A stretch of 32,715 nucleotides of DNA from a plasmid, in NCBI RefSeq assembly GCF_053078305.1, contig NZ_CP166878.1; one strand, written 5' to 3'. Below the pieces are notes generated by a model. It had not been told where the DNA came from. It searched no databases and was given only the letters and a program-made list of their open reading frames with translations. Shown one piece after another: positions 3,081 to 27,720 of this stretch (the stretch's first letter is position 1; the number at the start of each line of letters is the position of its first letter). The translations under genes and the position numbers were made by a program.

Positions 3081-3105
3081 TATCATTGTGTTTGTGTGAA
3101 ATATT

Positions 3106-3299
3106 GCTGTAACATCGACGGTCTACGACCACCTACCACCTGAATAGCTGTAGGTTCCGTGCGGTCAGGCTTGGCAGGGGGCTGACGCGGTTCCTGGCGA
3201 CATGAAACTCCCTGGTTAGGGGTATCGGCGCGACCTGGCATCTGTGACTCTATAAAGCCATTTTTCGCGCCTTCCATGCCGCTAAAGCGGCATATTCCA
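3106..3299 (+). repeat. 194-bp repeat family, copy 1 (upstream of ccdA)
   Basis: Near-identical to 18900-19093 and ~90% identical to 3962-4155; begins GCTGTAACATCGACGGTCTACG and ends with hairpin ATGCCGC-TAAA-GCGGCAT then ATTCCA. Confidence 0.9.
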
Positions 3300-3366
3300 C
3301 ACTTCTAGATCCGGGGTTTTGGGTATATGCTATGTTTATATGCATAATTTATGTGGGGGGCTTGTT

Positions 3367-3929: not shown

Positions 3930-3961
3930 TTTTTGCAGGGTAGTAAATAGTAAAAAATATC

Positions 3962-4155
3962 GCTGTAACATCGACGGTCTACGACCACCTACCAGCCGAG
4001 TGGCTGTCTGTTCCGTGCAAATGGGCTTTGCAGGGGGCTGGCGCGGTTCCTGGCGACCTGAAAGCCCCTGGTTAGGGGTATCGGCGCGACCTGGCATCTG
4101 TGACTCTATGAAACCATTTTTCGCGCCTTCCATGCCGCTAAAGCGGCATATTCCA
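3962..4155 (+). repeat. 194-bp repeat family, copy 2 (downstream of ccdB)
   Basis: Same length and ends as copy 1; about 20 substitutions clustered in hairpin-forming segments, several compensatory. Confidence 0.9.
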
Positions 4156-4233
4156 AACTTTGGAGCAGTTCTGCAATGTTGTTTGAATTGTTTCGTAGTC
4201 GTATCATTATTTTTTATGTGATGATTGTTTTTT

Positions 4234-15665: not shown

Positions 15666-15818
15666 CTACGGGGATGATAATACCCATGAGGTTGATACTT
15701 GGCAGAGTCAGCTTGTGGGCATTATCAGGGGACTATAAAAGCCCATTTAAATTGTATTTAAATCATCCGGTAACGGCAAGAAAAATAATGTGTCATTCAG
15801 GCATAAGTGCAGGGCCAT

Positions 15819-16787
15819 ATGATTAGTCCGGCAATTGATTATTTTGCGGCAAACTTGCCATACCGACCTTATCACGCGAATGAATTGCTCTATGGGCTTC
15901 GTATCGATAAGGCAGCTAAAGCAGTGCTGGCGCGTTATATACAGCATAATCCACCTCATGCAATGTACTGGCTTGTTTTTGACGTTGACAGGCCAGTTGC
16001 GGCGATTGACTGGAATGATCTTAATGCGCCCACACCTAATTTTACGGTCAAAAATCCGGTTAATGGTCATGCACACCTGTTTTATGGGTTAAAAACGGCA
16101 GTTCGTGTTGCCAAAGACGGTAGCATTAAGGCGATCGAGTTTGCTGCTGCGGTAGAGCGAGGATTACGTGACAAACTTAAATCAGATATCGGCTATGCAG
16201 GGCTGATCTGTAAAAATCCTCTCCATACATGCTGGCAGGTTGTTGAATGGCGTGGAGAACTTTATGAGTTAGCTGAACTGGCTGATTATGTTGATTTGTA
16301 CGCGTCAACAGCGGCTAACGATGAACAGGCATTCGATATCGACTTTAGTTATGGGCTTGGGCGAAATTGTTGGCTCTTCAATCTGACCCGTATCTGGTCA
16401 TATACAGCAATCCGGCAGGGCTGGCCTGATTTCCCGCAATGGAAAGAAGCGGTGATTCAGCGTGTCGAAATGTATAACGTGCAGTTAAGCGTGCCTTTGT
16501 CTCACAAAGAATGTGTATGCATTGGCTCCAGCATCGCCAAATGGACGCATAGACGCTTCACTGAAGCTGGATTTGAGCAATATGTAGCTGATACCCATAC
16601 ATCAGAAATTCAGGCTCGTAGAGGGCGTAAGAATCGCTCAGAAGTGCAGGCTGCTAAGGGGCGTAAAGGTGGGAAAATATCTAAAAGAGGGATTGTTGAG
16701 GATTCTGCGCGGAGTTTGAAACCGTGGGTAGAGTTAGGGATCAGTCGGGCAACCTATTATCGACGTAGGGCAAATGAGACCAAATAA
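15819..16787 (+). CDS. ColE2-type plasmid replication initiator (primase-type Rep, Replicase family)
   Basis: N-terminal region YRPYHANELLYGLRIDKAAKAVLARYIQHNPPHAMYWLVFDVDR is characteristic of ColE2-like Rep proteins as I recall them; basic HTH-like C-terminus; origin-like sequence overlaps the stop. Confidence 0.65.
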   Translation: MISPAIDYFAANLPYRPYHANELLYGLRIDKAAKAVLARYIQHNPPHAMYWLVFDVDRPVAAIDWNDLNAPTPNFTVKNPVNGHAHLFYGLKTAVRVAKDGSIKAIEFAAAVERGLRDKLKSDIGYAGLICKNPLHTCWQVVEWRGELYELAELADYVDLYASTAANDEQAFDIDFSYGLGRNCWLFNLTRIWSYTAIRQGWPDFPQWKEAVIQRVEMYNVQLSVPLSHKECVCIGSSIAKWTHRRFTEAGFEQYVADTHTSEIQARRGRKNRSEVQAAKGRKGGKISKRGIVEDSARSLKPWVELGISRATYYRRRANETK

Positions 16788-17649: not shown

Positions 17650-17710
17650 CAACCCCCTGATATCTCTCTTAGAGCTTTTGCGGGGCCAAAGAAGATAATC
17701 AGGGGGTCCA
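17650..17710 (+). promoter_or_regulatory. Long stem-loop in repA leader (candidate antisense-RNA target)
   Basis: Arms CCCCCTGATATCTCTCTT / AAGAAGATAATCAGGGGG around an 18-nt loop containing GCCAA (one base off the conserved IncFII/IncB loop hexamer); location upstream of leader peptide and repA. Confidence 0.45.
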
Positions 17711-17743
17711 AAGCAGGCTTTTGCCTGTAAAGGATTATAGCAA

Positions 17744-17800
17744 ATGCATTTTTCAATACAAGACTACTGCCCGGCAATAAGTGCGGGCGGTGGTGGCTGA
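17744..17800 (+). CDS. Leader peptide overlapping repA start (translational coupling candidate)
   Basis: 18-codon ORF MHFSIQDYCPAISAGGGG whose stop lies 17 nt inside repA, the arrangement seen for tap/repY-type leader peptides. Confidence 0.45.
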   Translation: MHFSIQDYCPAISAGGGG

Positions 17801-18506
17801 AAAGAACAATTCCTTAATCCCCCGCATATCGCCGTCAGGGGTGGCCAAACAAAGTCCATGCTATAACGTTGTGTCGCGTAAGCGACGCCGTTTCCTCAAT
17901 CGCTGGATTAAATCGCTGGCGACGGTCGCTGGGCGTGTCAAAATCAAAAACGAACTCCGCCGCCGTATCCGGCATAACCGATATTGGGTTAATGAGGCTA
18001 ACAAGTTTGGCATAGAGGCACTTTGCGAACTGATGTTAGCTATCCTGGATGATCTCGATTTACGCTCCTGGGAAACCAGGCATAACCTCGAAACACTGGC
18101 AGAACGTGCCGGACTGGTGACACGCAGTGACGCGGGGCGTAAATCTATTTCCCGTGCCAGTAGGGGATGTGATCGCCTGGTCTGGTTGAATGCGATCATT
18201 ACAGATAAAGCGCCGTTTAACCCCTATGATGCACGGTGTGCCTGTAAACACATTGAAGTAACCGAAGACTTCTTTGCCATACTCGGCATTCCGTTAAAAC
18301 TGGTTTATCGGGAACGTGCCAGGCTGTTAAAGGCAGATCCTAATGAAATGATTTACTCCGGGGATGCCAGACTGATAGCTATCAGAGTCCAGAACTGGAC
18401 ACGGAAAGCGGCAGCCGGATTAGCCCGGATGAAAGCGAAACGCGACGCAGCTCGACAACGCAAAAAAGAATATTACGCTCACCCACCTACCCCTATTCCG
18501 GTCTGA
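17781..18506 (+). CDS. repA: IncFII-family replication initiator RepA
   Basis: Segment LETLAERAGLVTRSDAGRKSISRASRGCDRLVWLNAIIT aligns with the RepA1 core of R100-type proteins (SITTLAIECGLATESAAGKLSITRATRALTFLSELGLIT); GTG start right after an in-frame stop. Confidence 0.75.
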   Translation: MRAVVAEKNNSLIPRISPSGVAKQSPCYNVVSRKRRRFLNRWIKSLATVAGRVKIKNELRRRIRHNRYWVNEANKFGIEALCELMLAILDDLDLRSWETRHNLETLAERAGLVTRSDAGRKSISRASRGCDRLVWLNAIITDKAPFNPYDARCACKHIEVTEDFFAILGIPLKLVYRERARLLKADPNEMIYSGDARLIAIRVQNWTRKAAAGLARMKAKRDAARQRKKEYYAHPPTPIPV

Positions 18507-18750: not shown

Positions 18751-18899
18751 AAGAAAAACATTACTGTTATCCCCTTTAACAAGTGAATAACCTAAAAACA
18801 TCGGCGCAAGCGCCTCAAAAGTAGCACCCCTCGCAAGCTCGGGGCATTAGAAACAACAGCATCCCATCATCACAATCGAACTATTATTCATCTATCTTC

Positions 18900-19093
18900 G
18901 CTGTAACATCGACGGTCTACGACCACCTACCACCTGAATAGCTGTAGGTTCCGTGCGGTCAGGCTTAGCAGGAGGCTGACGCGGTTCCTGGCGACATGAA
19001 ACTCCCTAGTTAGGGGTATCGGCGCGACCTGGCATCTGTGACTCTATAAAGCCATTTTTCGCGCCTTCCATGCCGCTAAAGCGGCATATTCCA
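18900..19093 (+). repeat. 194-bp repeat family, copy 3
   Basis: Differs from copy 1 by only a few substitutions; same orientation; sits between the repA origin region and the next gene. Confidence 0.9.
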
Positions 19094-20340: not shown

Positions 20341-20379
20341 ATCTCTTGATTTTATAATCCTATGATTATAAGATTGTTG
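20341..20379 (+). promoter_or_regulatory. Operator-like block P1 (CTTGATTTTATAATCCTATGATTATAAGATTGTT)
   Basis: About 85% identical over ~38 bp to 23919-23956 and related to the TGATT-repeat region upstream of parA. Confidence 0.5.
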
Positions 20380-20431: not shown

Positions 20432-20920
20432 ATGAATAATTTACGTGATAAAAAATCAAATCCTGTTATTACATTAATTGTTGTTGTTATTTCTTTATTC
20501 CTCCTTCCTGCAATCGTCGCGGGACTAGGAACTATGGGAGTGATTTACATTGATGGTCTGCGAGAATTACCGTCTTTTTGTATAAAGGCAATAAGTGTAG
20601 CAATCTGGATGCTTGTAGTTGCATACCTGATGTGTCGTATCATGAAAGCTAAGAAAGATTTTATTCGCTTACCTGCAAAACTGACGCTTATTGGAGCAGT
20701 TCTCTTGCCTCTGATAAGCAGTTTTAATAATGTAGTGACTACTATGTCATCTCCAGATGTTTCCACCAGAACAGACTTTCATGCAGCACTTATAAAAGGT
20801 CTGGACACAATGGAAAGTGAATTTATGTTTATAGTACCTGCTTTATTATGTGCAATAGCTTCCATTATGCTGGCTGTTGGAATGATAAATATTTTACGTA
20901 ATCGTTATATGGGGCGCTAA
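20432..20920 (+). CDS. Hypothetical polytopic membrane protein (162 aa)
   Basis: Several hydrophobic helices; RBS GGGAG; preceded by block P1 and motif copy a. Confidence 0.55.
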   Translation: MNNLRDKKSNPVITLIVVVISLFLLPAIVAGLGTMGVIYIDGLRELPSFCIKAISVAIWMLVVAYLMCRIMKAKKDFIRLPAKLTLIGAVLLPLISSFNNVVTTMSSPDVSTRTDFHAALIKGLDTMESEFMFIVPALLCAIASIMLAVGMINILRNRYMGR

Positions 20921-20955: not shown

Positions 20956-21127
20956 GGGATTTAATGTGGAACTGATAACAGATAATTTTTTTGAGTGGGT
21001 GGTGGCTCTCGCTATTTTGAATTTTATCGTCACGTTGAAATCTAAAGAGAAAATAACTTTGTTGTTAACGACGATAATTAGCCTACTTATTGCTTCAATT
21101 ATATTGAGGGCAGTTTGGATATAGAGA
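20956..21127 (+). CDS. Possible small membrane protein (56 aa)
   Basis: GTG-start ORF with two hydrophobic stretches; its stop codon lies inside motif copy b; weak call. Confidence 0.25.
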
Positions 21128-21130
21128 ATT
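21113..21130 (+). repeat. GTTTGGATATAGAGAATT motif, copy b
   Basis: Identical core to copy c; shares preceding GGG-CAG context with copy c. Confidence 0.8.
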
Positions 21131-21211
21131 TTACAAAATGAACTGTGCTATTTATCAATATCATTGATAAACACACTCTAATAATCACTCTTTACAGGAA
21201 ATGTACTCACT

Positions 21212-21529
21212 ATGATTATTAATCGAGAAAAATTTGAAATTATCAGAAAAATCATTCATGACACTCTGCTGGGTAATATTGCGCTCGTCGTTATTGCATT
21301 AATGTCTCCGGTTCTGTTAGATAAAATAGCGGAGCCTTTTAATATTATTATAGCTTCCGCCATGTCGATTTCCTTTATATTTATTCTTTGCTGGCTGGCT
21401 TCTTCAATCTGGTTGTACGCAGGAGAACTTGCGAAAAATAAAAGTTTAAGATGTACTCTTTTTATACTATGGGCACTGAGTGCTGAGGGTTCAATTATTT
21501 TAACTGCGAGAGATATTATTTTATGGTAA
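21212..21529 (+). CDS. Hypothetical membrane protein (105 aa)
   Basis: Two to three hydrophobic helices; no family recognised. Confidence 0.5.
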   Translation: MIINREKFEIIRKIIHDTLLGNIALVVIALMSPVLLDKIAEPFNIIIASAMSISFIFILCWLASSIWLYAGELAKNKSLRCTLFILWALSAEGSIILTARDIILW

Positions 21530-21583
21530 TGATCGTGGCGCGATTGCCAGCGAGCTAGGGGTTCCGTGGGAATTTCTGCGATA

Positions 21584-21621
21584 GGGGTTTGAAGCCCAAC
21601 CGTACGAAAACGTACGCTAAG
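21584..21621 (+). mobile_element. Tn1000/Tn3-family 38-bp terminal inverted repeat
   Basis: GGGGTTTGAAGCCCAACCGTACGAAAACGTACGCTAAG, close to the gamma-delta/Tn3 IR consensus (GGGG...ACGAAAAC...ACG.TAAG); a resolvase gene remnant ends 2 bp away. Confidence 0.75.
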
Positions 21622-21622
21622 T

Positions 21623-21862
21623 TCATTTCTTGAACAACCTGGCTGACTCTATGTATTTGTACAGCGTTGGCCTCGATATCCCCATCAACACACAAATCTG
21701 CGCAACGGTATGTTTTTTCTCGTTATAGAGTTGAACAGCAAGGGCCTGTTTATCCTTACTCAGTGTTTTCGGCCTGCCGCCCTTACGTCCTCTGGCTCGT
21801 GCTGCTTGAAGCCCGGCCTGAGTTCTCTGGGGGGTCGCGCCCATTTCCTCTAAAAGTCTCAC
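21623..21862 (-). pseudogene. Serine recombinase (resolvase/invertase) C-terminal HTH fragment
   Basis: 79-aa ORF containing GRKGGRPK...HTVAQICVLMGISRPTLYKY, the C-terminal DNA-binding domain only; the catalytic N-terminal domain is missing. Confidence 0.7.
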
Positions 21863-21885
21863 CTTGCTTAGGTAATTAATTGAAT

Positions 21886-22100
21886 TTATTTATAAAACAT
21901 TGCAATTTTAGCATCATTTTTTATTGTTCTTTTTAACCTGAAGTACGTCGATCGAGAGATACCTGTTTTTTCTGTCACACTGCCCAGAGATTCTCCCTGT
22001 GATATAAGCTCCAACGCTGTAGGCGTTCGTGGATGCTTCTTCCTGCCAAATTTTACGCCTGCGGCAAGTGCCGCTATTGGGGTCAGTTTGGATATAGAGA
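21886..22100 (-). pseudogene. Second recombinase-like HTH fragment (no start codon)
   Basis: Minus-strand frame encodes ...AALAAGVKFGRKKHPRTPTALELISQGESLGSVTEKTGISRSTYFR, resembling a serine-recombinase C-terminus; the frame runs into motif copy c with no initiator. Confidence 0.4.
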
Positions 22101-22109
22101 ATTATTGTA
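22086..22109 (+). repeat. GTTTGGATATAGAGAATTATTGTA motif, copy c
   Basis: Third direct copy; lies at the 5' truncation point of the recombinase-like fragment. Confidence 0.8.
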
Positions 22110-22404
22110 CGGCAAGCCTGTTTTTTGAACAGACTTACCTATCGCGATAGGGTGTACTCCCGTGCTATACGGCGTTTTCAGGGGCTTTGGCCTTAATCGG
22201 ATAACCTAAATGCGACATAGCAAGAGCGATAACTTAAAGGCGATAGCCGCTGATGTTAAATCAATACGTTAGAATCTTAAATTGATTAAATAATGCGCTT
22301 AACGTACAAAAATTTCCGTTTCCCAAACCGCCCCCATATTGTACGTTTCCCTAACCGACCCCTTACTGGTCGCGGAAAAATCCAGGTTTCCGGCCTGGAA
22401 CCCC

Positions 22405-22536
22405 TATACAATCACTTGATTCGATAATTATAAAATTAAGTGATTTTATGATTGCATGATTCTATGAGCATGGGATTATTAGAATGTTTGGCAGAGGTAC
22501 TATGTGAACAAAGGGGAGGGGAAAATGCCTAAAGTT
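22405..22536 (+). repeat. Orphan duplicate of par promoter-operator plus first 4 parA codons
   Basis: About 94% identical over 132 bp to 24844-24975, including RBS and ATGCCTAAAGTT, then diverges; the operator inverted repeat is degenerate in this copy. Confidence 0.85.
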
Positions 22537-22614
22537 GGAGCAGCGGGAGCGTTCGAACAGAGACTTACGGTTTCGTTCTTTGTGCAGCAGTTGAAACCGT
22601 AATTATTTGTTTTA

Positions 22615-22865
22615 GGGGTTTGAGGCTCAGTGGAACAATAACCGCCGTTAAGCGGTCATTTTAAATAGCCAAAAATCAACCAGCCAATTTACATCGTGAA
22701 TCTGCGTTCTTGGCTATCTGTTTTGGGGGGCCAAGTTGGCTTTACTCATCCTGGCCGTTTGCGGAACAAAAGACGTTGTTGATCTCAACAGATTGATTAA
22801 CCTGTTATTGACCATTCAATTGAACCGCTTAACCGCCTTTTGAGTTCCACTACTCCCCAAACCCC
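22615..22865. mobile_element. Miniature Tn3-family element (TIME-like), 251 bp, with 5-bp target-site duplication
   Basis: 38-bp IRs GGGGTTTGAGGCTCAGTGGAACAATAACCGCCGTTAAG (22615-22652) and inverted GGGGTTTGGGGAGTAGTGGAACTCAAAAGGCGGTTAAG (22828-22865); flanked by direct repeat TTTTA on both sides; no ORF inside. Confidence 0.8.
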
Positions 22866-22882
22866 TTTTATGCCAAGTAGAA

Positions 22883-23091
22883 GGGGTTTGAGGGCCAACC
22901 GTACGAAAACGTACGGTAAGAGGAAAATTATCGTCTTAAAAATCGATTAGTAGACAATGCCGTCCGTTAAGTGCCAATTTTCGATTAAAAAGACACCGTT
23001 TTGATGGCGTTTTTCTATGTCCATTATGTTTTGATATATCAGACAGTTACTTCACTAACGTACGTTTTCGTTCCATTGGACTTCAGCCCCC
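22883..23091. mobile_element. Second miniature Tn3-family element (TIME-like), 209 bp, with 5-bp target-site duplication
   Basis: IR GGGGTTTGAGGGCCAACCGTACGAAAACGTACGGTAAG (22883-22920) and an inverted IR at 23054-23091 that contains TGGAACGAAAACGTACGTTA; flanked by TAGAA on both sides. Confidence 0.75.
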
Positions 23092-23111
23092 TAGAATACG
23101 TCAGATGTGTT

Positions 23112-23333
23112 CTACCTAGATTGTAGAGACTGAATTAGTGCTTCTACTGCCCAATCAGGACAGGTTCTGGAGCTTGGTTTATCCGGGTCATTAATCCAGG
23201 AACGGATAGTTCTTACAGAGCATGGTCGGTGAGTGTATTCACAAATTAGGTTCGCGGCTTGCGCCTGGGTTAACCCGTTATCAGTCAGTAACGTTATAAA
23301 TGCGGCACGGTTATCTGACACTATAAACCCCAT
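23112..23333 (-). CDS. Small putative DNA-binding protein (73 aa)
   Basis: HTH-like segment LTQAQAANLICEYTHRPCSVRTIRSWIN; overlaps the end of the upstream membrane-protein gene by 23 nt. Confidence 0.45.
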   Translation of the reverse strand: MGFIVSDNRAAFITLLTDNGLTQAQAANLICEYTHRPCSVRTIRSWINDPDKPSSRTCPDWAVEALIQSLQSR

Positions 23334-23805
23334 CTTTTTTGAACGTAATGCTAACCTGCCCTTCTGTCGGAACCTCCATTACTTCCCGGATCTTTTTATT
23401 TATGGCAATTTCGGTAGCGCTCACAAAGATCGGAATCCCTTTTGCCGCTATGCTGATAGCTACGGCAATAACCGTCAAAGCAATACAGTAGTATGTTATT
23501 ACTCTAATAATTTCAGCTATATTCTCAGAGGGGGAGTTTCTTAGAAATGTTATTAAATGTATTAATTCTGCTTGATGATAAATAGAATAAAACATAATAG
23601 AGGCAATAAATATTGCGAAACCATGAACAAAATAATGCCAGAGTTTAAGGGGTATTCTCCAAGCAAATCCAATGTAACTGAAAACTGAAGCCACATGAGT
23701 TCTCCAGTCTTTTTTTACTGATTTAACTATTTCTTCATATTGTGATATTGGCATTGAGCCGACTTCAATATTATTGACTTTAACTATCGCTATGCCCTCT
23801 TGCAT
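23311..23805 (-). CDS. Hypothetical membrane protein
   Basis: Start placed at the ATG preceded by a consensus AAGGAG RBS (ORF track extends to 23898); three to four hydrophobic helices. Confidence 0.55.
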   Translation of the reverse strand: MQEGIAIVKVNNIEVGSMPISQYEEIVKSVKKDWRTHVASVFSYIGFAWRIPLKLWHYFVHGFAIFIASIMFYSIYHQAELIHLITFLRNSPSENIAEIIRVITYYCIALTVIAVAISIAAKGIPIFVSATEIAINKKIREVMEVPTEGQVSITFKKDGVYSVR

Positions 23806-23918
23806 GACTTTGTTCTCCTTCTGCCATGATAAAAGATCTTGTTTTACATACCATGATAGGCACATGTGCCTGTTTGGTGCAACATGCTTTACAAACATAA
23901 GAATAATAAAAGGATATA

Positions 23919-23956
23919 ATCCCTTGATTTTGTAATCATATGATTATATGATTGTT
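23919..23956 (+). promoter_or_regulatory. Operator-like block P2 in divergent promoter region
   Basis: ATCCCTTGATTTTGTAATCATATGATTATATGATTGTT, homologous to P1 (20341-20379); lies between divergently oriented genes. Confidence 0.5.
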
Positions 23957-23985: not shown

Positions 23986-24261
23986 ATGAGCCAGTATCGT
24001 TTAACAGGAAAATCAGCATCGCGTAGTTATGAACTTCTGGTTGGCTGGGATACCCCGCTTTCCAGGTTTTTTCTTGTTATTGAGCCAGAACTTGACGAGC
24101 CGGTATATTCGAATATTTATGAGAAAGATCCATCATCTTTGACGCTTGAGTTTTTTCAGTCAGTTCTTGAACGTTACGGGATAGAGAATGTATCTCTGCT
24201 GCCTGGTCATGAGTCAGGTTTGTATGAGAAATTGCATGATGATAGAAGAAATAATAACTAG
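23986..24261 (+). CDS. Hypothetical protein (91 aa)
   Basis: Strong AGGAGGGAG RBS; no family recognised. Confidence 0.55.
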   Translation: MSQYRLTGKSASRSYELLVGWDTPLSRFFLVIEPELDEPVYSNIYEKDPSSLTLEFFQSVLERYGIENVSLLPGHESGLYEKLHDDRRNNN

Positions 24262-24293: not shown

Positions 24294-24644
24294 ATGAAAA
24301 TAAAACTAGGGTCAGGTTCGGTATCTGTAAATGGTGTTGTGTATGAAGGAAAGGGGAAAATTATTTCCATATTAAATAATGAAGTCATTATTGATGGTGT
24401 CGTTCATGGGAAAGCCGTAGCTCTTCCTGAAATTACTGTTATTGTTAATGGTCATGTTGATTCATTACATACCGAGTTGGGAAATATAATCATTAATGGT
24501 AATGCTGGTATGGTTAAAACTGCATCGGGGGATGTTTCTTGTGAAAATGTTTCAGGAAATGTTGAGTCTATGAGTGGTAATGTTAATTGTAAAAATGTTT
24601 ATGGTGGAGTTAAAACATTATCTGGAAACATATATAAAGAATGA
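24294..24644 (+). CDS. Repetitive beta-strand protein (bactofilin-like?)
   Basis: 116 aa with recurring V/I-x-G-x-V and SGNV motifs typical of beta-helical repeat proteins; the bactofilin assignment is a guess. Confidence 0.45.
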   Translation: MKIKLGSGSVSVNGVVYEGKGKIISILNNEVIIDGVVHGKAVALPEITVIVNGHVDSLHTELGNIIINGNAGMVKTASGDVSCENVSGNVESMSGNVNCKNVYGGVKTLSGNIYKE

Positions 24645-24843
24645 GTTCATTAAAACCCCGTACAATATATTGTACGGGGGTAGTACAGAAGAGGTATTGG
24701 GTTGCTACATTTCCAGGTTATATGCAGAAACCATTTTTATTTTATCAGGTATTTATTTTTTCTTAATGAGATAGTTCACAAAATCATCAATCCAGGGACT
24801 GTTTTTCGTTATCTGCCGTATCTGCGTACCCCTGATTTTTTGG

Positions 24844-24963
24844 TATACAATCACTTGATTCGATAATCATAAAATCAAGTGATTTTATGATTGCATAATT
24901 TTATGAGTATGAGATTATTAGAATGTTTGGCAGAGGTACTATGTGAACAAAGGGGAGGGGCAA
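24844..24963 (+). promoter_or_regulatory. par promoter-operator (candidate centromere/operator)
   Basis: Perfect 12-bp inverted repeat AATCACTTGATT ... AATCAAGTGATT plus reiterated TGATT motifs directly upstream of parA. Confidence 0.6.
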
Positions 24964-25587
24964 ATGCCTAAAGTTATAGCATTTTTAAATGGTAAGGGGG
25001 GGGTGTCTAAGACAACCTCGGCAGTCAATATTGCTACTGCTCTTGCTCGTAAGGGATACAAAGTTGTCGTTGTGGATACCGATCCTCAGGGAAGTGTTAG
25101 TAACTGGTATGATGACAGTAAGTGTGTTTTTGATGTAGCAGAAGCTACGACAGAAAAAGAAATTTACCGTTTGCGGAAGGCGCTTCCTTTGCACGATTTT
25201 ATCATTATTGATGGTGCTGCGGCGATTTCGGCGATATCGGCAGCTGCTGTTATGGTTTCTGATCTTGTCATTATCCCAGTTACTCCTTCGCCGCTTGATT
25301 TTGCTGCATGTGGCGCGATATTGGCAGTGATAGAAGCTCGGCAGGATTTACGCCCGGTGATTGCTCGCTTTTTGATTACTAAAAAAGTACAGCAAACGCA
25401 TATGCTATCTTTGCTGAAAGAATCTATTGCAGAAACAAGCATACCAGCATTAAAAACAGGAACGTCGTACAGGCAGTCATATATAAAGTCTATGCTAGAT
25501 GGTGGTACTATATTTGATACAAAAGATAGTGCTGCTAAAGGTGAAATATCAGTCATTACAGAAGAAATACTTGGACTATTAAAATGA
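24964..25587 (+). CDS. parA: ParA-family partition ATPase (ParF-like)
   Basis: Deviant Walker [19 protein letters not shown]; ATG 24964 with GGGGAGGGG RBS (ORF track begins at upstream GTG 24943). Confidence 0.9.
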
Positions 25588-25793
25588 GTAAAATGAAACT
25601 TGGGAATCATAAGGCAACAAACACCGCTCTGGATGCACTAAAGAAACCTGCTGGAGCAACCAGGAAATTACAAATGAATATTCCAGAAGAGTTACACCTT
25701 GCATTTAAGTTAGCTTGTGTGGAAGATGGTGTCGATATGACACAGGTAAATATAGAACTAATTCAAAACTGGTTGAAGAGTCGTAACTTATAG
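25584..25793 (+). CDS. ParG-like ribbon-helix-helix centromere-binding protein
   Basis: 69 aa; start overlaps parA stop; C-terminal region [39 protein letters not shown] resembles ParG of TP228 as remembered. Confidence 0.65.
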
Positions 25794-25821: not shown

Positions 25822-26313
25822 ATGGAGTATACACCAATAGCGTTAAGTCCAGGAGCTATGTTGCATAAAGGGAAATTCATTGGTTATGTCATGAAGATCA
25901 GATTTTCCGAGTGTTCTGGAGATCATCTTTTTTATTTGAGATATGATATGGTTGTTGAACTTGCAAGAGCATTAGCAAGAAAAACACACCAGATGTATCT
26001 TAAAGGGACTTTTAGTACAGATGAAAGTAGTCAGGCTACGTTAGAAATGGAAAAGGATTATAAGCAGCATGATATTCATTTAACAAGTGATGAAATATCG
26101 TCACCATCTGTAAATAACTTTGTTGCATTGTTAGATTATAATGTAAGGGATGCATCATTATTATTATCACTAATCAAAAATGATAATTCTAAAATTGATA
26201 TTAGTATACCAGAAGCAGCGGTGGAAATATTTACAGGTTATATGATGAATACTGTTATTAAGGCAGGGGGAGAAGCTTTATCTGAAAAACTTATATCAGA
26301 TATTGGAGTTTAA
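25822..26313 (+). CDS. Hypothetical protein (163 aa)
   Basis: ORF with GGAGG RBS; no family recognised. Confidence 0.5.
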   Translation: MEYTPIALSPGAMLHKGKFIGYVMKIRFSECSGDHLFYLRYDMVVELARALARKTHQMYLKGTFSTDESSQATLEMEKDYKQHDIHLTSDEISSPSVNNFVALLDYNVRDASLLLSLIKNDNSKIDISIPEAAVEIFTGYMMNTVIKAGGEALSEKLISDIGV

Positions 26314-26458: not shown

Positions 26459-26737
26459 TCAACCCTTTATAGACGAAGTGAAGTCAGACCACTGTTCAAT
26501 CCTGAATGCTCTGATATCCCTGACTGAATTTGGGAACCATTCAAGAGCTTTTAATGCGTTCATAGCCTGAAAAAGGTTTGCCATATTTTCATCGCTATTT
26601 GTGTACAGGCTTCCCTGGATTCGCTCAAATCCGTACCTTTTAAGGGTCGAACTTATATCGTTGTAAGCCTGTGACACGCCTTTCGGATGGTGTTTTTCTG
26701 TATCTGCAACGGTTAAATCAAATGATATTGCGTACAT
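26459..26737 (-). CDS. vapD: VapD-family endoribonuclease (Cas2-like fold)
   Basis: MYAISFDL N-terminus, QGSLYTN and SVRDIRAF motifs match VapD proteins as remembered. Confidence 0.85.
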   Translation of the reverse strand: MYAISFDLTVADTEKHHPKGVSQAYNDISSTLKRYGFERIQGSLYTNSDENMANLFQAMNALKALEWFPNSVRDIRAFRIEQWSDFTSSIKG

Positions 26738-26740
26738 AAC

Positions 26741-27031
26741 TTACTCTGCATCAGGATCTTGTAATAGTTTTGAAAGTTTGTACAACTCTTTCTCACCTGT
26801 CTGAACCAGTATAATGTTGACAAGAATATCACCATCAGGTAGTTCTTGGGCTGGCTCTCCTACCTCGTAAGGAATACCAAGCAGCCCGAATGTCTTAATC
26901 GTACCTGTTGGAATTTGCACTGTATTCATTGTTTTCGCTCCGATTTCCAGCCTCATCTTATCAGTCATAGCTTTGATAATAGCCTGACTGTCAGGTGACT
27001 GGGCCGCAATTACTTCTTCTAATGTTCTCAT
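26741..27031 (-). CDS. Hypothetical protein immediately upstream of vapD (possible cognate partner)
   Basis: 96 aa, 3-bp gap to vapD in the same operon; no sequence-level assignment possible. Confidence 0.5.
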   Translation of the reverse strand: MRTLEEVIAAQSPDSQAIIKAMTDKMRLEIGAKTMNTVQIPTGTIKTFGLLGIPYEVGEPAQELPDGDILVNIILVQTGEKELYKLSKLLQDPDAE

Positions 27032-27049
27032 CTGTTGATGCCCAATTTT

Positions 27050-27349
27050 TTACAGGTGGAAAGCCATACGCTTGCCTGTAGGCAATGTCACGTCCAGGCT
27101 TAACTCGCCGCCCAAAGCTTTTACATAACGTTTAAGCGTCGATATTCTCGGATCGTTGTCAGTTTGCTCCATCCTGGCAACTGATGGTTGTTTTACTCCC
27201 ATCATTGTAGCCAGTTCGGTTTGGGATATGTTCAGTTCATCACGTAAAGCACTAAGTGCGAGCTGAATGCTGGCTTTTTCAACTCGGTCGGCTACGTGCG
27301 CCTGCATTTCAGGACTCTCTTTAGCCAGTAGTTCTCTGTAGGTAGCCAT
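27050..27349 (-). CDS. XRE-family helix-turn-helix protein (HigA-like antitoxin/regulator candidate)
   Basis: HTH segment NISQTELATMMGVKQPSVARME and C-terminal LKRYVKALGGEL; start set at the ATG preceded by GGAGAAA RBS (ORF track extends to 27400). Confidence 0.65.
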   Translation of the reverse strand: MATYRELLAKESPEMQAHVADRVEKASIQLALSALRDELNISQTELATMMGVKQPSVARMEQTDNDPRISTLKRYVKALGGELSLDVTLPTGKRMAFHL

Positions 27350-27720
27350 GTTATTTCTCCAGTTTTGCAAGATGTTCACGGTATTCATTATATACTGCAT
27401 TATAACGAATACACTATAATTTCCAGAAGAACAGGGCTATTTAACATAATGGACGTTATCAGCACCACCGGATCACAGTTCGTTGTCAGATCTGAAAAAT
27501 CCGCTCAAAAGATCATGTTTTCCTGGGCGTTTTTCGTCGTTTTTTATGTTGCTTATTTGTTAATAAAATCTCGTTTCTTGTTTTGGCTGAATTTGGATGT
27601 GAAAGCCTTATATTTGCAAGTTATCCGGTGAAGGGAGGTAGCCGAGACTGAGGATTGATTGTTTTGTACAAGTTCTAATGCATAATGTGTACATATAGTA
27701 GCGTTAGCATAGGGCGTAGT

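Follow-up and report, generated by a model that had tools for sequence, protein, structure and literature searches.

In the TP228 ParF-ParG-parH partition system, the ParG operator O_F and the centromere parH consist of tetramer boxes separated by 4-bp AT-rich spacers, which occur in both orientations and form two clusters (PMC3130281). Two groups of named proteins offer comparisons for a beta-helical protein encoded beside a system of this kind: Toastrack domains (DUF4097, DUF2154 LiaF_C, and DUF2807), for which a role in protein-protein contacts has been proposed (PMC11237479), and bactofilins (PF04519/DUF583; TtBac 6RIA and CcBacA 2N3D), in which variable regions at the N and C termini flank the core and are proline-rich and disordered in Caulobacteraceae (PMC12364344). 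Here, we describe orf116, a gene upstream of the parA-parG operon in a 32,715-nt stretch of plasmid DNA (NCBI RefSeq assembly GCF_053078305.1, contig NZ_CP166878.1), the whole of which was analyzed and is referred to below as the window. We lean toward the view that orf116 codes for an accessory protein-binding module co-regulated by ParG, and not for a partition scaffold. The genes of the region, and a hairpin that lies among them, are as follows.

23986-24261, plus strand: orf91, coding for a 91-amino-acid (aa) orphan, with a strong AGGAGG ribosome-binding site
24294-24644, plus strand: orf116, ATG start, 116 aa, a member of PHROG 3163
24656-24679, no strand assigned: hairpin, a perfect 12+12 palindrome, GC-ended, starting 12 nt past the orf116 stop
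24964-25587, plus strand: parA, coding for a ParF-type small Walker ATPase; start as in NZ_CP045715.1, with the longest open reading frame (ORF) beginning at GTG 24943
25584-25793, plus strand: parG, coding for a ribbon-helix-helix centromere-binding protein/repressor, annotated ParG

The orf116 gene and its predicted product

The 116-aa ORF at 24294-24644 was confirmed exactly as given in the initial annotation; it is on the plus strand and has an ATG start, and AGGA lies 9-12 nt 5′ of the ATG. The orf116 gene is real and not a chance ORF: it is conserved at 98.5-99.6% identity across 10 PLSDB plasmids, has many distant homologues, and occurs in 13 of the 5,426 complete genomes of E. coli, in every case on a plasmid of 29-35 kb.

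The protein had been described as built of V/I-x-G-x-V repeats, which is a fair description, and its 16-residue periodicity is highly significant; BLOSUM62 autocorrelation (500 shuffles) peaks at a 16-residue offset, where z is 7.0 over the full length and 8.3 when only residues 47-116 are considered. The repeat units start at residues 47 (ITVIVNGHVDSLHTEL), 63 (GNIIINGNAGMVKTAS), 79 (GDVSCENVSGNVESMS), 95 (GNVNCKNVYGGVKTLS), and 111 (GNIYKE), and have the consensus G-[DN]-[VI]-x-C-x-x-V-x-G-x-V-x-T-x-S; an N-terminal beta region of ~45 aa is followed by ~4.4 turns of a 16-residue beta-solenoid repeat. The composition favors V, G, N, I, and S, with nine K+R and ten D+E residues and a net charge of about -1, and the protein has no signal peptide, hydrophobic segment, or transmembrane segment.

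An AlphaFold2 model of orf116 using an 11-sequence alignment is confident and all-beta (predicted local distance difference test [pLDDT] of 83.5, predicted TM-score [pTM] of 0.70), in which the N-terminal residues 2-40 form five short strands and the strands are regular from residue 48 onward; only ~3 residues extend beyond the last strand, and no segment has a pLDDT below 50. The structural neighbors of the model are right-handed beta-helices, with these structural comparison scores:

MpAFP antifreeze protein, 3p4g: 8.5
'Putative pectinase', 3lyc: 7.6
Antigen 43, 7koh: 6.7
Bactofilin, 6ria: 6.6
MinC C-terminal domains: 5.8-6.4
'Putative adhesin/lipoprotein' structures 3jx8, 3ljy, 3pet, and 4ygu: 5.2-6.2

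Structure prediction thus gives a repeat-built right-handed beta-helix, in line with the beta-helical repeats noted initially, and the modeling supports a small beta-helix as the fold class; we conclude that the product is most likely a right-handed beta-solenoid that is small, soluble, cytoplasmic, and made of a single chain. No solved structure matches it specifically, either by sequence or by Foldseek; sequence-profile searches of the PDB with 11- and 95-member alignments identified no relative and no solved bactofilin (E ≤ 10). Near-identical folds are found in nameless phage proteins in BFVD (TM-score up to 0.91), where the matches also include a few proteins of giant viruses and a phage protein labeled 'Bactofilin' (E = 1.2e-4). 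A MinC-like beta-helix regulator that would bind a ParA/MinD-type ATPase directly was also considered and seems highly improbable.

At the sequence level, orf116 is a further member of a family that is catalogued but uncharacterized. It matches phrog_3163 with an E-value of 1.3e-24 (87.4 bits), with residues 6-114 aligned to profile positions 12-118 of 121, and its homologues match the same profile with E-values down to 1e-43. The match is full-length and both are stand-alone proteins of ~115-121 aa; they differ in that the PHROG group carries no function and the orf116 copy is on a plasmid, not a phage. Literature searches returned nothing on the PHROG 3163 family. HMMER, run exhaustively over 1.84 billion representatives, identified 1,316 proteins at E ≤ 1e-3, 286 of them at E ≤ 1e-10, and almost all are stand-alone, 110-130 aa long, and aligned end to end. 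The near-invariant positions are glycines, a T-x-S-G-[DN] turn, and a cysteine at the matching place in successive turns.

The only Pfam match to orf116 is DUF4097 'Toastrack' (E = 0.006), which at 16.4 bits falls short of the 22.9-bit cut-off; NCBIfam yields nothing beyond noise (LiaG, E = 0.18), and PADLOC gives no match. When 95 family members were scanned against Pfam, DUF4097 was matched by 17 (best 6e-5), GXGXG by three, and Bactofilin by two (best 4e-4), with none of the 95 reaching any gathering score; among longer members the scores are 19.3-20.0 bits for DUF4097 and 18 bits for LiaF-like_C, likewise sub-threshold. The most economical reading of these comparisons is that the Toastrack models DUF4097 and LiaF_C are the nearest named sequence relatives of orf116, at a distance short of demonstrable membership. 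Beyond its scores below the gathering cut-offs, orf116 differs from Toastrack proteins in being roughly half as long as the DUF4097 model, which spans 247 positions, in giving no significant Foldseek result, and in lacking fusions to PspC, LiaI-LiaF-TM, two-component systems, or PadR/HAAS, all of which are also absent from the recurrent neighbor clusters and annotated regions inspected. An NCBI label of 'DUF342' on a truncated copy was not reproduced by Pfam hmmscan.

The initial annotation also likened the protein to bactofilin-type polymer formers and proposed that it could be a polymerizing scaffold acting in partition or positioning, and a bactofilin-like scaffold for positioning the plasmid or its ParA system does have a precedent in the Myxococcus bactofilin-ParABS system, BacNOP-PadC-ParA (PMC5703909). 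The fold class, the adjacency to par, and the shared promoter boxes described below are consistent with such a scaffold, but the bactofilin identity itself was not borne out: orf116 has no PF04519 match at E ≤ 1, the two matching members of the 95 are sub-threshold, and neither profile searches nor Foldseek found a solved bactofilin. Unlike bactofilins, the orf116 model has no low-confidence terminal segments, with the N-terminal 45 aa being a folded beta region, and in the phage, plasmid, and viral-contig records examined the family is on mobile elements and not chromosomes. Self-association was probed by fusing two copies through a 25-residue (GGGGS)5 linker and modeling the fusion in AlphaFold2 with a paired alignment of 36 family members; this crude and weak test, in which the coordinates and predicted aligned error were not inspected, gave no confident interface (pLDDT 61, pTM 0.44; pLDDT 38-61 over the five models). 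We infer that orf116 probably does not polymerize.

Promoter boxes and linkage to the partition genes

The parA product matches NCBIfam ParA_partition (E = 5.5e-51) at 173 bits, just under the 180-bit cut-off, as well as Pfam AAA_31 and CbiA, and the parG product matches Pfam ParG above the gathering score (E = 1.6e-11). A gene coding for a YjeJ-like 163-aa protein (25822-26313, plus strand; RefSeq YjeJ family, with a sub-threshold Pfam YjeJ match at E = 3.8e-4) begins 28 nt after parG and may be part of the par operon.

It had been suggested that orf116 occupies an operon-like position just before the par promoter. It does lie upstream of par, but it belongs to a separate unit with orf91, and the hairpin and the par promoter/operator lie between this unit and parA. 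The gap between orf91 and orf116 is 32 nt, and the two genes are probably co-transcribed; orf116 is separated from parA by 299 bp when measured to the longest ORF (GTG 24943) and by 319 bp to the annotated ATG (24964). The 61-nt plus-strand stretch containing the hairpin (24640-24700) has a folding energy of -19.5 kcal/mol (z = -3.4), and a T-tract follows the hairpin on the minus strand only. Homologues of orf91 are found only in the window plasmid lineage, and its product has no match in Pfam, NCBIfam, PHROG, or PADLOC. In CP088440.1 (locus L059, 2685-3389), a deletion takes orf91 and the 3′ part of a 162-aa ORF described below, while orf116 and par are kept and orf116 sits 58 nt after the truncated 98-aa ORF.

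The same intergenic region has a promoter-like site on the minus strand (24766 to 24739; TTAAGA-16-TAAAAT, with an upstream TG), and the only terminator-like site in the region lies downstream of it, formed by the hairpin read from 24679 to 24656 and then TTTTAATGAA. A small minus-strand transcript of ~80 nt within 24652-24766 is therefore possible from the sequence; the predicted RNA has a folding energy of -25.2 kcal/mol (z = -3.4) and no match in Rfam.

Exact TGATT/AATCA pentamers with a center-to-center spacing of 7-9 bp were scanned for over the 32.7-kb window, and arrays of such boxes are present at only three places, one of which coincides with the promoter predicted upstream of orf91.

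23923-23954, plus strand: orf91-orf116 promoter/operator identified by promoter scan, with -35 TTGATT (23924) and -10 TATGAT (ending at 23952)
23925-23953: orf91-orf116 promoter array, four boxes at 23925, 23934, 23941, and 23949, over the -35 and -10
24849-24914, plus strand: par promoter operator/centromere-like array, six exact boxes (24849-24892) with ~8-bp phasing, then degenerate TAATT, TGAGT, and TGAGA
22441-22461: array in a partial duplicate of the par promoter, three boxes

The par array overlaps the promoter -35 TTGGTA and -10 GATAAT (24840-24867). First-order Markov simulation yields 0.035 arrays of at least three boxes per window, and arrays of at least four boxes in none of 200 runs; pairs of the form TGATT-N3-TGATT with at most one mismatch number 14, against 5.6 expected. 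The locus resembles the TP228 system in combining parA-parG with short-box arrays that have 8-bp phasing, both orientations, and two clusters. It differs in that the distal cluster is ~900 bp upstream and within the promoter of another operon, and in that no beta-helix gene is described in this position in TP228. Because the orf91-orf116 promoter has the same phased boxes as the par promoter, a regulatory tie between orf116 and par is plausible; these par-type boxes overlap the orf91-orf116 promoter, which is therefore most likely repressed by ParG with the par operon. By analogy with TP228, orf91-orf116 would be co-repressed with par by ParG, or else the distal array would contribute to the centromere.

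Two other segments of the window are related to these promoters. The orf91 promoter and positions 20345-20376 have a common 32-nt block in which all 29 specified bases are identical (0 expected by chance); this second segment is the promoter region of the 162-aa ORF (20432-20920, no family matches) and contains degenerate phased TGATT-type boxes, and the ORF may belong to the same regulon as orf91-orf116. The two promoter regions can also be aligned with each other. The partial duplicate of the par promoter is a 132-bp segment (22405-22536, corresponding to 24844-24975 with 94.7% identity) that includes the promoter/operator and the first parA codons; it lies ~2.4 kb upstream of the real one and diverges from it after ATGCCTAAAGTT.

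We compared 41 non-redundant family loci, with flanks of up to ~5 kb on each side, and a ParA-like ORF is present within the flanks in three of them; it is adjacent to the family gene only in the window lineage (1/41), and the adjacency of orf116 and par is peculiar to one ~30 kb E. coli plasmid lineage. Conversely, a parA-parG operon with 95% identity is present without orf116 in the IncFIA plasmid pM172-1.1. At the locus of the closest independent homologue (P0015, locus L003; 49-50% identity), a ParA gene and a ribbon-helix-helix gene are 3.9 kb away, and several copies of a TGTATAACGTTATACA palindrome surround these par genes, but there is none upstream of the beta-helix gene. Comparative genomics therefore gives no support for a dedicated partition role of orf116, and neither this comparison nor the tandem-fusion result supports the accessory role in partition proposed at the outset. 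The bactofilin-like polymerizing scaffold, which would have to account for the rarity of ParA adjacency and for par operons lacking orf116 as well as for the missing profile matches, seems to us improbable.

Under the reading that we favor, a ParG-co-regulated accessory protein-binding module, orf116 would be transcribed with orf91 from its own promoter and repressed by ParG alongside par. The protein would use a rigid, flat beta-sheet surface to bind a protein partner, encoded either by the host or by the element, and would be an accessory, establishment, or host-interaction factor rather than a core or dedicated partition component; analogy with Toastrack domains suggests this protein-binding role. 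Several points weigh against it. The conserved residues are probably fold-maintaining, since they fall at the repeat-defining positions, and no conserved binding surface is seen among the family residues. There is no characterized homologue, all Pfam matches in the family are below the gathering score, and a Foldseek search of the PDB with the orf116 model gave nothing significant (best E = 0.74). The window box is TGATT/AATCA, whereas TP228 ParG recognizes ACTC, and the suggestion that ParG would bind both arrays is an argument from their architecture. Finally, because the hairpin has no U-tract on the plus strand, read-through from orf116 into par is possible.

A more elaborate version, about which we are quite doubtful, is that orf116 is a mobile-element mini-Toastrack recruited into the ParG regulon, with its operon between two ParG-box clusters. 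The protein would serve as an adaptor that tethers the ParA/ParG segrosome to a cellular landmark, or that adjusts a stress or immune pathway of the host as par expression changes, and PHROG 3163 would more broadly constitute a new class of beta-solenoid effectors of phages and plasmids.

Distribution and neighbors of the orf116 family

Using tblastn, the family was found in 124 phage records and 181 plasmid records. The phage hosts are Vibrio, Klebsiella, Erwinia, Serratia, Acinetobacter, Aeromonas, Yersinia, and Escherichia, with phage genomes varying from ~45 kb to jumbo phages of ~355 kb, and IMG/VR contributes 42 further loci. The contexts of the family genes are heterogeneous accessory positions:

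On a 294-kb contig (jumbo-phage), within an array of small genes that lack annotation
On plasmid-like contigs with HigB, integrase, resolvase, and AcrVA2-like genes
In the replication module of an Acinetobacter plasmid of ~105 kb
Directly downstream of trbC, and overlapping its end, in a Serratia plasmid
On a Vibrio plasmid that also has a terminase gene
In Escherichia phage TL-2011b, on the opposite strand, with the terminase genes on one side and a block of unnamed genes on the other

The Vibrio plasmid is probably a phage-plasmid, because of its terminase gene. IncX4 and IncI2 plasmids code for a 138-aa relative that has the C-terminal solenoid in common with orf116 (44% identity over 70 aa) and is located in a small-gene block beside taxA/taxC (IncX4) or near the transfer region (IncI2). 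This relative is annotated as 'tail-associated lysozyme' or 'phage tail protein', and these labels would point to a structural protein of the virion or tail. However, no tail genes are listed in the IncX4 and IncI2 plasmids or in the related annotated plasmid, the TL-2011b copy is on the strand opposite to the neighboring terminase genes, and we suspect that the tail label reflects mere repeat similarity to beta-helical needle proteins; a virion role is the least credible of the explanations we considered.

The commonest genuine neighbor is an R2K-clade ATP-grasp gene (PF18299, E = 5e-16), which adjoins the family gene in 10 loci on IMG/VR phage contigs (L024, L032, L034, L043, L044, L046, and L048-L051), representing six of the 41 non-redundant groups; it is upstream of the family gene in some loci and downstream in others. 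A DUF3307 membrane protein is also encoded near the family gene in L043 and L046-L051. For the phage branch of the family, these neighbors are consistent with a partner or substrate of the R2K-clade ATP-grasp ligase, but neither the R2K nor the DUF3307 gene is present in the window, and the R2K gene is absent from most family loci, so such a partnership cannot be the general function; we think it very unlikely. The two top-ranked 'conserved neighbor' clusters proved to be artefacts, comprising antisense ORFs that overlap the repeat gene itself. A conserved partner gene was likewise rejected, as orf91 is an orphan unrelated to the genes upstream of the L003 and IncX4 homologues.

The distribution of the family on mobile elements makes anti-defense or establishment the leading sub-hypothesis for its function. 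The protein could be a decoy or inhibitor of a host immune or stress protein soon after entry of the element, a possibility, if an unlikely one. Among everything examined, the family is found only on mobile-element-type sequence and in accessory positions; AcrVA2-like genes are ~3-4 kb from the family gene in two loci (L009 and L010), the IncX4 and IncI2 copies are in a small-gene block beside the relaxase or near the transfer region, and in the window plasmid ssb and a CcgAII-like gene are in the same half as orf116. Against this, PADLOC gave no match, with no search made against an anti-defense library, and we found no paper that mentions the family. The idea that orf116 is a DNA mimic was dropped because of its net charge of about -1.

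Other features of the plasmid and biological significance

When the window is compared with the related plasmid NZ_CP045715.1 (locus L001), the segment at 21105-23897 proves absent or rearranged; it also contains inverted backbone pieces. It includes inverted repeat-like GGGG...TAAG sequences at 21574-21611, 22615-22652, and 22884-22921, which look like Tn3-family terminal inverted repeats, and a recombinase-gene fragment (21828-22078) that matches L001 beside its Tn3 transposase. This segment, just upstream of the orf91 promoter, looks like the scar of a transposon that inserted and recombined there. Divergent from orf91 is an ORF of 195 aa that includes hydrophobic stretches (23311-23898, minus strand); it is absent from L001 and has no match in Pfam, NCBIfam, or PADLOC.

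Elsewhere in the window, three copies of a 194-206 bp repeat with 90-98% identity are present at 3099-3304, 3955-4160, and 18898-19093, located just upstream of ccdA, just after ccdB, and upstream of a gene annotated as CcgAII in CP088440.1, respectively; they resemble the CUP (conserved upstream) repeats of IncN plasmids. Immediately upstream of the repA ORF (17781-18506) is a regulatory pseudoknot of the Rfam PK-repBA type (17651-17778, plus strand; 86.4 bits, E = 4e-18), and there is a second replication initiator gene at 15807-16787. Downstream of the par operon, a three-gene cassette on the minus strand (26459-27400) codes for a Cas2-fold 'virulence factor' (PF09827, E = 9e-7; possibly VapD-like), a DUF5397 protein, and an HTH_3 regulator, and may be a toxin-antitoxin-like module.

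If orf116 is an accessory module co-regulated by ParG, it would add little to partition biology. It does, however, flag a large family of uncharacterized small beta-solenoid proteins, with the 1,316 representatives and the phage and plasmid records noted above, including those of IncX4 and IncI2 plasmids, and the family is a reasonable target for screens of anti-defense, establishment, and host-takeover functions. For the plasmid itself, the box arrays suggest that ParG may be a global repressor on a small scale, or that the centromere has two parts, like O_F and parH in TP228.
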